Assembly: GCA_037131105.1 (NCBI GenBank)
Contig: JBAXRQ010000001.1
Location: 130,039-194,038 of the forward strand
DNA: 64,000 nt
Direction of reading: 5' to 3'
Source: a bacterium
Lineage (GTDB): Bacteria > Patescibacteriota > UBA1384 > CAILIB01
How positions within the stretch are numbered: position 1 is the first letter of the stretch; every line of letters begins with the position of its first letter. Of this stretch, positions 13,579 through 15,648 are shown in pieces. Made by a program: the position numbers and the translations under genes. The notes beneath the pieces are model-generated. The model was not told the DNA's origin. It made no database searches and was given only the letters and a program-made list of their open reading frames with translations.

Positions 13579-15648
13579 TTAGCTTAGGATCATCAAGGCG
13601 GCAAACAGGGCGAGAAGCGCCACGGCCGCGCTGATAATCAGACCTATATACATATTCAATTGTACCTTGCCTTTGGCCATCGGATTACGGCCTATGGCCT
13701 CCAGGCCTCGTCCGGACATAATGCCGATGCCGATTGCAGACCCTAGGAGCCCGAATCCAGCTGCGATTCCCGCGGCCATATTTTTTAGGAATTGCTGGGT
13801 GCCTCCGCTGGCGCTGGCTCCGGCTTTGCCGCTGAGTACGCTTTGCAGGGCCTCGCCGATGCTTCGTACCAGATTCTTGCCGTCACTCTTGACTTTGAAG
13901 GTATTGCTGATGCCGCTGATGCTGCCGCCCACGGCAGTGATGGCAGTACCGTCGCTCTGGTAGAGGATCTTAGTCTGACCCTTCCAGATACCTGAGGTGA
14001 ACGGAGTAGCGATGCTGGGGGTGACCGATCCGGTGGAGTCACTGAGCGTGGCTGATCCGGTAAAGTTAGTGAGGATGTTACCTGAATAATCCTTGGCCGT
14101 AACTGTGACAACAAAGGCGGTGCCGGCGGCCTGGTCGGCGATCTTGTCAAAGACCAGTACCCCACCATCCTGGGGATGGATGGCTACGGTAGCGTCAGTG
14201 GTTTTATCTATGGTGGCGCCGGTATCGAGCTGTACCTGACTGGCCTTTACGGTCACTGTGCCATTGCCGGGCTTGAGGCTGGCGGTGAGGTCGGTGGTGC
14301 TGGCAGTCTGGTAGCTAAGCTGGCCGATATCGCCCGTAGTAGTCCAGTTATAGGTGATGTCGGTGATGGAGTTGTTGTACTTGTCGAAGGCCTGGGCGGT
14401 GATGATCTGCTTACTTCCGGCGGGTATGCTGACAAACTTCGGGGTAATATAGACCCGGTCAAGCTTGCCGGCGTCAGGGCGCGGGTCAGGCGGCTGAGTG
14501 CCGTTGCCTGAGCCAGTACTGTCGCTGGGGGTAGGGGTGGGGGTAACGTCGTTTGAGCCCCCAGGCGACGAACTGGTGCCGTTGCCGAACTGGCCGTTGC
14601 CGGGATCGCCACCCTCGGTGACGCCGCTGGTCTCGTTGACGACGGTGATGCTTGCTAGGGCGCCAATGCCTCCGACTTCCGCTCGAACCGTATTCGCGTA
14701 GGTCCCTGATACGTCACCGGCGGTGAAGACCCCGTTCTGGTCAATGGTGCCACCGCCGGCAGCGACGCTCCAACTGGGAGAGGGGAGGTTTACCGGATTT
14801 TTGAATGAGTCATATCCGTTTACTATGTACTGCTGGGCAGCGCCCTTGGGGATGATGCTGGTAAGCGGCGTGATCTCCAGTCCGGCTAAGGCGCCAGGAA
14901 GGGCGTTTGCATAGATGGTGAGCTGGGCGCCGCTGATGCCTGAGACCTGGGCGGTGACCGAGTAGGTGCCGATCTTATTTCCTAGTACCACTGAATTGAG
15001 GATGAGTCCGTCCGATCCAGAGCTTACCGTGGCACTACCTGCCGCCTGGCCGCTGGCTCCTGCCGGGTAGCCTGCTACCTGGAAATTGACGTTGACATTG
15101 GGGACAGGGTTGCCGTACTGGTCGATGACCTTGGCCACGATGCTGCGGGACAGGGATGACCCCACTACGCCGGTCTGTCCGTTGCCGCTTACCAGGCCTA
15201 GGGTGGTGAAGTTGGTATTCGGTCCTACCGTAAACGTGTCTGATCTGACGTTGCGGATACCGTAAGAGGCCGTAATAGCGTCGTTTACCATTGATTTGGT
15301 AATGGTGACTAGGGCCGTCCACTGTCCATTACTAAAGGCACTGGTATGGGTAGGGGTAATACTCCCACTACTGTCGGATAGGTAAACCGAATCATTGAAG
15401 GTGGTGACCAAATTCCCATTACTATCCAGGGCACTGACCGTGATATTGAAGGGGACGCCGGCTACCTTGTCATCACCCTGGGTGAAGCCTGAGTCGATGG
15501 CTAAGTGGTCAAGGCTGCCAGTAGCATGGACGTGCTGGAGGGTTCCGATCAGGGCGCCGCTCAAGGACATGAAAAGAAGGGCTATAAAAGCATAGCCAAG
15601 AACTACCTTCCTCAGGAGAAGACGTAAAAACTTCGAGGAGGGCGACAT
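13579..15648 (-). CDS. Fusion ORF: signal peptide, about 600 aa of Ig-like extracellular repeats with a Thr/Pro/Ser/Gly linker, and a C-terminal F-type ATP synthase c-subunit-like hairpin.
   Basis: The last roughly 66 aa are [66 protein letters not shown]. This contains the c-subunit Gly-zipper and the R-N/Q-P loop. It sits exactly where atpE belongs, directly upstream of atpF. There is no stop between the Ig-like region and this hairpin: the in-frame upstream codons read …[11 protein letters not shown]. No Asp or Glu is present in the second helix. Confidence 0.6.

Follow-up and report, generated by a model that had tools for sequence, protein, structure and literature searches.

A subunit c hairpin fused to an immunoglobulin-like ectodomain, the putative rotor subunit of a second, ion-uncoupled F-type ATPase in Patescibacteria

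Rotary F-type ATPases are textbook ion-coupled machines. In a 64,000-nucleotide stretch of a patescibacterial genome (GTDB lineage Bacteria; Patescibacteriota; UBA1384; CAILIB01; GenBank assembly GCA_037131105.1, contig JBAXRQ010000001.1, positions 130,039 to 194,038 of the forward strand), referred to in the following as the window, an F-type ATPase operon contains a gene, here termed c-fusion, in which a large immunoglobulin (Ig)-like ectodomain precedes a C-terminal hairpin of the subunit c type. The anatomy of this gene and of its operon is regarded with high confidence as real, conserved and unusual. Judged from sequence, c-fusion appears to code for the subunit that builds the rotor ring in a paralogous second F-type ATPase, which is found in many lineages of the Candidate Phyla Radiation (CPR)/Patescibacteria. 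As a preliminary description of the stretch had stated, the gene occupies the atpE position directly upstream of the gene for a b-like subunit; on the minus strand, c-fusion is followed by b-like, delta/OSCP, alpha, gamma, three unrelated genes, beta and a 94-residue epsilon. The parts of c-fusion and the ATPase genes of the window are the following, with the basis of each assignment in brackets:

13579..15648, minus strand: c-fusion gene, 689 residues, composed of signal peptide, five Ig-like domains, linker and c-subunit hairpin (open reading frame, Pfam, homologues, AlphaFold2 model)
15523..15648, minus strand: predicted signal peptide, residues 1-42, with basic n-region, hydrophobic core and a V-H-A site before Thr43 (hydropathy, model, homologues)
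13888..15516, minus strand: extracellular part, residues 45-587, with beta-sandwich domains D1-D5 and a disordered T/P/S/G-rich linker at residues 340-395 (AlphaFold2 model)
13579..13800, minus strand: c-subunit hairpin, residues 617-689 plus stop, helix 2 without carboxylate, Glu being replaced by Ala672 (Pfam PF00137, PDB alignments)
13024..13566, minus strand: b-like peripheral-stalk subunit, 180 residues, one N-terminal transmembrane helix (operon position; NCBIfam subunit B, E 1e-7, below cut-off)
12482..13027, minus strand: delta/OSCP (Pfam OSCP, E 2e-15)
10422..12506, minus strand: alpha of the fusion-type clade with a P/A/E/K-rich C-terminal tail of about 190 residues (Pfam; TIGR00962 above cut-off)
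9489..10418, minus strand: gamma (Pfam ATP-synt, E 9e-43)
6276..7682, minus strand: beta of the fusion-type clade, catalytic motifs intact (TIGR01039, 611.8 bits, above cut-off; Walker B present)
5884..6168, minus strand: epsilon, 94 residues, N-terminal beta-sandwich only, without the C-terminal inhibitory helices (Pfam ATP-synt_DE_N, residues 8-85)

The c-fusion gene (13579..15648, minus strand) forms a single unbroken reading frame of 689 codons for amino acids, and the earlier observation that no stop separates ectodomain and hairpin is hereby confirmed. An AlphaFold2 model, computed from an input alignment of 29 homologues and reaching a mean predicted local distance difference test score (pLDDT) of 79, comprises an N-terminal helix (residues 3-36) in the signal-peptide region, five beta-sandwich domains (about residues 45-145, 148-250, 255-337, 398-491 and 497-587) that bear out the proposed Ig-like ectodomain, two disordered linkers (the T/P/S/G-rich one at 340-395 and a second at 591-616) and a helical hairpin at residues 616-688, the helices of which span 616-654 and 656-688. 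Pfam matches to Big_1 and Invasin_D3 at residues 169-244 stayed below threshold. When the whole model was compared by Foldseek, the best matches were the multi-Ig S-layer proteins SbsC, EA1 and Sap, and all matches were of a generic multi-Ig kind.

Hydropathy confines the hydrophobic segments of the protein to residues 7-40, 624-646 and 661-689. The predicted topology, with an N-in signal peptide, the ectodomain outside and the hairpin loop in the cytoplasm, agrees with the basic character of both the n-region and the loop, and the outward-facing ectodomain of the preliminary description is consistent with it. The same orientation is known for bacterial c subunits. Homologues possess A-x-A-like sites at a place equivalent to the V-H-A site of the window protein, and cleavage of the signal peptide may be expected.

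With regard to the hairpin, the Pfam profile ATP-synt_C (PF00137) matched residues 624-687 over its full length (positions 1-60 of 60; E 2e-9; 38 bits against a cut-off of 24), and the scores with all NCBIfam equivalog models for subunit c were below cut-off. Solved c subunits from the PDB align across the entire hairpin, their ion-binding Glu falling on Ala672, and helix 2 is devoid of any Asp or Glu. The Gly-rich packing motif in helix 1 and the R-N-P loop (GLEAIGRNP) are present, and the loop is invariant in 29 homologues. Both the c-type nature of the hairpin and its missing carboxylate, as originally described, are thereby upheld.

The fusion is shared by many relatives. A search of 5.8 billion proteins retrieved 28 further full-length homologues (37-54% identity, 638-806 residues). 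Database annotation treats the fusion proteins as ordinary c subunits, and many of these 28 carry the automatic label 'F-type H+-transporting ATPase subunit c'. When GTDB species were scanned with one genome each and loci were taken at ±10 kb, 32 loci with a full-length fusion and 47 loci with ordinary c subunits of 70-114 residues were obtained. The fusion-bearing metagenome-assembled genomes (MAGs) are labelled as CPR2, CPR3, Berkelbacteria, Microgenomates group, Saccharibacteria or 'Patescibacteria group'. Altogether, the fusion is kept in one frame in approximately 60 homologues of 638 to about 2650 residues from many CPR/Patescibacteria lineages. Moreover, the identical gene with identical neighbours was recovered in an independent Logan assembly of run SRR7053528. 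A homologue search with the last 195 residues of c-fusion returned seven fragments only, none of them from a named cultured organism.

The upper end of the length range is represented by giant fusions of 1296-2589 residues in three loci (L014, L022 and L023) and of up to 2653 residues in an exhaustive profile search with the full-length alignment, which was dominated by giant multi-Ig proteins and gave no clean family count. These giants (L014, 273-4163; L022, 4937-12706; L023, 4685-12400; and P0140 and P0158) end in the same carboxylate-less hairpin. In L023, alpha and beta are more divergent, with 38% and 50% identity to those of the window. In three further relatives the fusion gene is split into two to three open reading frames (L024, 5457-7437; L030, 9857-11770; L031, 9899-11815); the breaks lie away from the junction of ectodomain and hairpin and could be frameshifts, pseudogenes or MAG errors.

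A comparison of 54 distinct fusion hairpins with 45 distinct short c subunits of CPR bacteria separates the two groups in helix 2. The ion-binding column holds Glu in 45 of 45 canonical proteins and in 0 of 54 fusions, where it is occupied by Leu (27), Ile (12), Val (7), Ala (5), Met (2) or Phe (1). Likewise, an acidic residue anywhere in helix 2 is found in all 45 canonical c subunits and in none of the 54 fusions. Mean pairwise identity is similar for the loop (0.83 among fusions, 0.85 among canonical c subunits) and for helix 1 (0.58 and 0.55), whereas for helix 2 it amounts to 0.39 among fusions as against 0.79 among canonical proteins. Across full-length members of the family, conservation peaks in the loop (0.89), the Ig domains ranging from 0.50 to 0.57. 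The window hairpin itself shares 46-57% identity with canonical CPR c subunits. Since the loop is as conserved as in canonical c subunits, the part that touches gamma and epsilon appears to be selected no differently from that of a genuine rotor, while the low identity of helix 2 points to a release from selection of the ion-binding part that faces subunit a. The conserved loop also lends indirect support to the notion that the fusion hairpins would assemble into a ring bound to gamma and epsilon.

The other subunits were found along with the fusion. Orthologues of the b-like gene occur in 29 fusion loci and delta/OSCP in 28, and the order c-fusion, b, delta, alpha, gamma, beta and short epsilon, the last of which comes after beta, is recurrent across fusion loci. 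All fusion-type beta subunits keep the catalytic motifs including Walker B, and all fusion-type alpha subunits, that of the window among them, keep the P-loop and the SVSRIG arginine finger. In addition, the fusion-type F1 is distinguished by the clade-specific signatures GKTQL and GDRK[ST]GK. The identity of beta to the window protein is bimodal, with values of 66-79% where the locus is of the fusion type and 50-55% where it is canonical, and the F1 and stalk genes of the fusion operon accordingly group, as sequences, into a distinct clade. Fusion-type alpha subunits are generally longer (537-694 residues) than canonical ones (486-557 residues); in the window, the low-complexity P/A/E/K-rich tail (10422-11000, minus strand) makes up the C-terminal 190 or so residues and would sit at the membrane-facing end of F1. 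Between gamma and beta (7748-9354, minus strand), the window contains a His_Phos_1 phosphatase (8809-9354) and two membrane open reading frames (8215-8784 and 7748-8194), which look like a lineage-specific insertion in the operon because no relative has them.

Subunit a was searched for by a hidden Markov model (HMM) built from canonical loci. In 45 of the 47 canonical loci the model matches the open reading frame immediately upstream of the short c gene, the other two loci ending at a contig edge, whereas it has no match in 32-33 fusion loci (±10 kb) or in the 64-kb window. One 313-residue open reading frame of a Shapirobacteria MAG (L076, 4913-5854) is matched by both the subunit-a HMM and a c-hairpin HMM and may be an a-c read-through or fusion.

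The paralogous nature of the fusion-type operon is indicated by genomes that hold both operon types. In L043, fusion-type alpha, gamma, beta and a 108-residue epsilon are followed after about 4.5 kb by a complete canonical operon, and L071 shows the same distance between a complete canonical operon and fusion-type delta, alpha, gamma, beta and a 104-residue epsilon. Both canonical operons run a-c-b-delta-alpha-gamma-beta-epsilon with an epsilon of 145 residues. Fusion-type F1 genes beside a full canonical operon argue that the fusion-type operon is a paralogous second ATPase. The c-fusion gene itself lies outside both loci; in the MAG of L043 it is found on another contig (L019) together with b and delta, and a further MAG likewise holds both operon types (L026 and L078). 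The preliminary description had held that a canonical atpB/atpE pair elsewhere in the genome would make c-fusion a paralogous anchor, and such a coexistence is borne out for the relatives, where these genes even share a contig with fusion-type operon genes (L043, L071). The 64 kb of the window include no canonical atp set and otherwise carry housekeeping genes (polA, leuS, dnaG).

Beyond the ATPase genes, conserved neighbours were identified by clustering the open reading frames of all fusion loci. Several of them encode surface proteins with a resemblance to the Pam pilus system, and in the window the following were assigned:

4544..5794, minus strand: Pam-pilin-like secreted protein, paralogue 1 (same family as 3381-4472)
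3381..4472, minus strand: Pam-pilin-like secreted protein, paralogue 2 (NCBIfam CPR_Pam_pilin_C, E 1e-4, below cut-off)
2636..3445, minus strand: conserved protein, either secreted or anchored (L001 and L016 have syntenic homologues; no Pfam match)
1584..2588, minus strand: chaperone-like protein with a C-terminal transmembrane helix, candidate PamC/D counterpart (WxLIP_PGBD, 30.4 bits against a cut-off of 27.3; fn3_5)
323..1582, minus strand: Big_13/Big_6/dockerin surface protein, syntenic with the chaperone-like gene (Pfam; 10 fusion loci)
15739..17888, minus strand: MacB-type ABC transporter, FtsX permease and ATPase (Pfam)

Pam pili were described for Ca. Mycosynbacter amalyticus as donor-strand-exchange filaments, the assembly of which involves chaperones whose C-terminus forms a transmembrane helix; PamR is a dedicated membrane tether of the system, and neither a dedicated envelope machine nor retraction machinery was found (June 2026 bioRxiv preprint, 10.64898/2026.03.03.709456). 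ATPase genes neighbouring the pam operon were interpreted as a coupling to ATP production, and the preprint makes no mention of subunit c, a c fusion, a missing subunit a, a missing carboxylate or rotation (10.64898/2026.03.03.709456). The window resembles this arrangement in that its ATPase operon is followed by proteins distantly related to the C-terminal domain of Pam pilins and by a chaperone-like protein with a C-terminal transmembrane helix. The product of 3381..4472 scored 22.3 bits with CPR_Pam_pilin_C ('Pam pilus system pilin subunit'; profile positions 3-146 of 148) against a cut-off of 55. Matches to the same model were obtained for 14 of 22 members of the pilin-like family (best E 1.2e-8), the cut-off having been compared for the window protein only. 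An HMM of this family detected members in 15 of 33 fusion loci and in none of the 47 canonical loci (Fisher p = 1.6e-7). The AlphaFold2 model of the pilin-like protein, built with database homologues, has two beta-sandwich domains at a pLDDT of 94.5; its Foldseek matches were generic multi-Ig proteins, chaperone-usher adhesins among them, and sequence searches of the PDB with the pilin-like family and with the chaperone-like protein gave no match.

The chaperone-like gene occurs in 10 fusion loci, and its product resembles the described PamC/D in layout (10.64898/2026.03.03.709456). A 'WxL-like' label for the downstream secreted proteins was dropped, WxLIP_PGBD being matched by the chaperone-like protein alone. 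Around the ATPase genes, the pilin-like and surface neighbours are arranged in three different orders, which argues for selection on linkage rather than for an inherited order. The MacB-type ABC ATPase/FtsX pair adjoins c-fusion in four lineages (the window, L014, L022 and L023); in L023 it is placed between the fusion and b. A role of this pair as accessory or stator partner is only suggestive.

In comparison with canonical F1Fo (atpBEFHAGDC; CPR operons L033-L079), alpha, beta, gamma, delta, b and the N-terminal domain of epsilon are recognisable in the fusion operon, alpha and beta in the window pass the atpA and atpD equivalog cut-offs, and the hairpin passes PF00137 with its Gly motif and R-N-P loop preserved. 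On the contrary, the operon is without subunit a and without the ion-binding Glu/Asp, its epsilon is devoid of the C-terminal domain, its c protein bears an N-terminal ectodomain of 600-2600 residues, its alpha and beta belong to a separate clade, and both operons coexist in at least two genomes. As far as sequence permits a statement, the complex seems to retain an alpha3beta3 head whose motifs indicate intact catalysis, a gamma/epsilon shaft, a b/delta peripheral stalk and a c-type ring with a selected R-N-P loop, and to have lost what ion translocation needs, namely subunit a and the helix-2 carboxylate, with helix 2 apparently evolving freely and the inhibitory domain of epsilon gone.

From the mechanics of F-ATPases it would follow that such an enzyme can neither translocate ions nor make ATP and works solely as an ATPase, in which hydrolysis would turn gamma/epsilon and the ring against the b/delta stalk. 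The retention of the peripheral stalk suggests that torque still matters. After cleavage of the signal peptide, each ring subunit would display about five Ig-like domains outside the cell on a flexible linker, and torque or a conformational change would be delivered to the cell surface. Gene linkage suggests that this output would serve the adjacent Pam-type donor-strand-exchange pilus or surface apparatus, whether by anchoring it, by providing a platform for its assembly or by turning or pulling its filament. Candidates for holding the transmembrane helix of b would be the membrane-anchored chaperone-like protein with its peptidoglycan-binding-type Pfam domain or the MacB-type FtsX/ABC pair. 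Hence, an ion-uncoupled, ATP-driven rotor ring with extracellular arms, serving pilus or surface machinery, is considered, with moderate confidence, the probable nature of the system, and of the readings originally envisaged, the evidence favours a decorated c-ring or repurposed c-like element.

Several points weigh against this interpretation. Ring formation, association with this particular F1, rotation and signal-peptide cleavage are steps that we infer, and the coexistence with canonical F1Fo is observed in the genomes of relatives and not within the 64 kb of the window. Without subunit a, the single transmembrane helix of b has no known partner, which poses a stator problem, and if the ectodomains are bulky or tethered, it might be the F1 head that turns and not the ring. 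As to the surface connection, Pam-like genes are present in fewer than half of the fusion loci (15 of 33); many of the remainder run into a contig border, yet five (L004, L010, L011, L027 and L032) have flanking sequence and no Pam-like match. The pilin-like protein of the window remains below the NCBIfam cut-off (22 bits against 55), and the window proteins are Pam-like and not confirmed Pam members. The likeness to the Pam locus lies in the presence of Pam-like genes beside ATPase genes.

Among the alternatives, the one that survives best regards the c hairpin as a mere oligomerising membrane anchor of a surface adhesin, a pilus tether or an S-layer-like array, the neighbouring F1 genes representing a duplicated ATPase that serves regulation or some unrelated purpose and transmits no torque to the ectodomain. 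The resemblance of the ectodomain to multi-Ig S-layer and adhesin proteins speaks for such an anchor, as do the stator without an obvious anchorage and the PamR tether of the Pam model, by which membrane-anchored Ig proteins are normal in that setting (10.64898/2026.03.03.709456). However, a mere anchor would not need the F1-contacting loop, which is the most conserved segment of the family and on a level with that of working c subunits, and the full set of shaft and stalk genes has been inherited together with the fusion in about 30 lineages with the catalytic motifs intact; a static role is thus held to be unlikely.

Still less probable is a mixed ring, in which a few fusion subunits within the c-ring of a canonical F1Fo would decorate an ATP synthase that is still ion-coupled. 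Carboxylate-less hairpins do occur in nature, as in the duplicated proteolipids of V/A-type enzymes and in c1 of A. woodii, which is part of a working heteromeric ring (PDB 4bem); moreover, some genomes hold both operons, and the hairpin has 46-57% identity to canonical CPR c subunits. In A. woodii, however, the silent hairpin shares its ring with active sites facing subunit a, whereas the fusion operon has no a and provides silent hairpins throughout. In every case the fusion comes with b, delta, alpha, gamma, beta and epsilon genes of its own and at no locus with a gene for a, and its helix 2, which would have to pass subunit a in a mixed ring, has lost constraint.

The preliminary description had also considered an internally initiated c subunit. 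A short c-like proteolipid could be released either by a start at Met624, an internal Met at the beginning of the hairpin, or by proteolysis in the linker at 591-616, with ring and ectodomain acting separately. The ATG at this site is preceded by an A-rich stretch, and the linker is disordered in the model. None of 19 inspected gene starts of the window has a Shine-Dalgarno-like motif (for instance 15649-15678 and 13567-13596), so that ribosome-binding sites cannot judge start sites, Met624 included. Nevertheless, Met624 is replaced by Leu or Ile in nearly all homologues, the in-frame fusion is kept over the whole length range in distant lineages, which is hard to explain if the parts act apart, and a freed hairpin would still be without carboxylate and subunit a. 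Internal initiation is consequently disfavoured, and release by either route is deemed very improbable. Lastly, an artefact, that is a stop codon lost or a frame shifted by an assembly or sequencing error so that two genes appear fused, has a practically negligible chance, in that the split genes of three relatives, the sole point in its favour, are not broken at the junction, while an independent assembly contains the identical gene and some 60 homologues from separate projects keep the frame.

If c-fusion is the rotor subunit of an ion-uncoupled ATPase, its closest functional parallel would appear to be found in the paralogous F1-like ATPases of mycoplasmas. The Type 2 or 'G1' ATPase drives gliding of M. 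mobile, and the Type 3 'F1-like X0' ATPase, with its Walker A lysine intact, is required by the surface system MIB-MIP, which cleaves antibodies; for Type 3, the surface function was shown to depend on ATP hydrolysis (PMC3369863, PMC12994834, PMC11864180). Similar to the fusion-type operon, these enzymes are paralogous copies beside a genuine F1Fo, lack subunit a and an ion-binding c, are expected to be capable of hydrolysis only and are linked to a surface system. In their 'Protein 5' (MMOB1650, MMCAP2_0577, MSC_0620), a signal peptide is followed by a large domain and by two transmembrane helices at the C-terminus (PMC12994834, PMC3369863), and it is this layout only that the CPR c-fusion shares; by this analogy, 'Protein 5' may be an unrecognised, degenerate c fusion. 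On the other hand, the CPR system keeps b, delta and a clear c-type hairpin and has neither the 12-transmembrane-helix 'Protein 1' nor the small 'Protein 2'. With the mycoplasma models of NCBIfam, the beta subunit of the window reached 423.5 bits for MSC_0618_beta (cut-off 570) and 442.6 for glide_MMOB1670 (cut-off 850), and alpha 246.9 bits for MSC_0619_alpha (cut-off 520) and 340.5 for glide_MMOB1660 (cut-off 600).

Another second F-type operon beside a housekeeping one is that of the N-ATPase (alternate F1F0, atpDCQRBEFAG). This enzyme has subunit a, an Na+-binding c and AtpQ/R and lacks delta. The window, in contrast, has delta, and its scores with the alt_F1F0 models are far below cut-off for beta (516 bits against 752), alpha (481 against 750.5) and c (18 against 131). 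Since alpha and beta remain below the cut-offs of both the mycoplasma and the N-ATPase models, they fall outside those families, which points to a separate derivation that kept b, delta and a recognisable c. A literature search, the coverage of which excluded most subscription journals, found no report of a fusion of subunit c with an ectodomain or of a second, a-less ATPase in CPR bacteria.

The favoured reading would mean that a whole bacterial radiation keeps a rotary core from which the ion path has been removed and to the rotor of which large extracellular arms have been attached, providing a direct route by which the energy of cytoplasmic ATP is turned into mechanical work outside a cell without outer membrane. 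It would further offer an explanation for the 'ATP synthase' genes that always accompany the Pam pilus operon, for which neither a motor nor a retraction system is known. CPR metabolic reconstructions in which fusion-type genes are scored as ATP synthase are probably wrong, and the recognisable c hairpin might form an evolutionary link to the enigmatic X0 parts of those mycoplasma ATPases that serve gliding and MIB-MIP. A bolder extension, which is put forward as speculation and is itself more doubtful than not by a wide measure, is that F1 spins the c-fusion ring and that a Pam-type pilus is founded on this ring: pilins would be taken up by the Ig arms through donor-strand exchange, the filament would be assembled on, turned or wound in by the motor, and the part of the stator would fall to the membrane-anchored chaperones that bind the cell wall. 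If true, the flagellum and the archaellum would be joined by such a pilus-base motor as the third type of rotary organelle on prokaryotic surfaces, and 'Protein 5' of the mycoplasmas would likewise be explained, namely as a degenerate c fusion.

Finally, a GH81 beta-1,3-glucanase (19724-21829, minus strand) is encoded next to a cellulose-synthase-like GT2 glycosyltransferase (22418-23974, minus strand) close to the surface-apparatus cluster; both are envelope or host-glycan enzymes.

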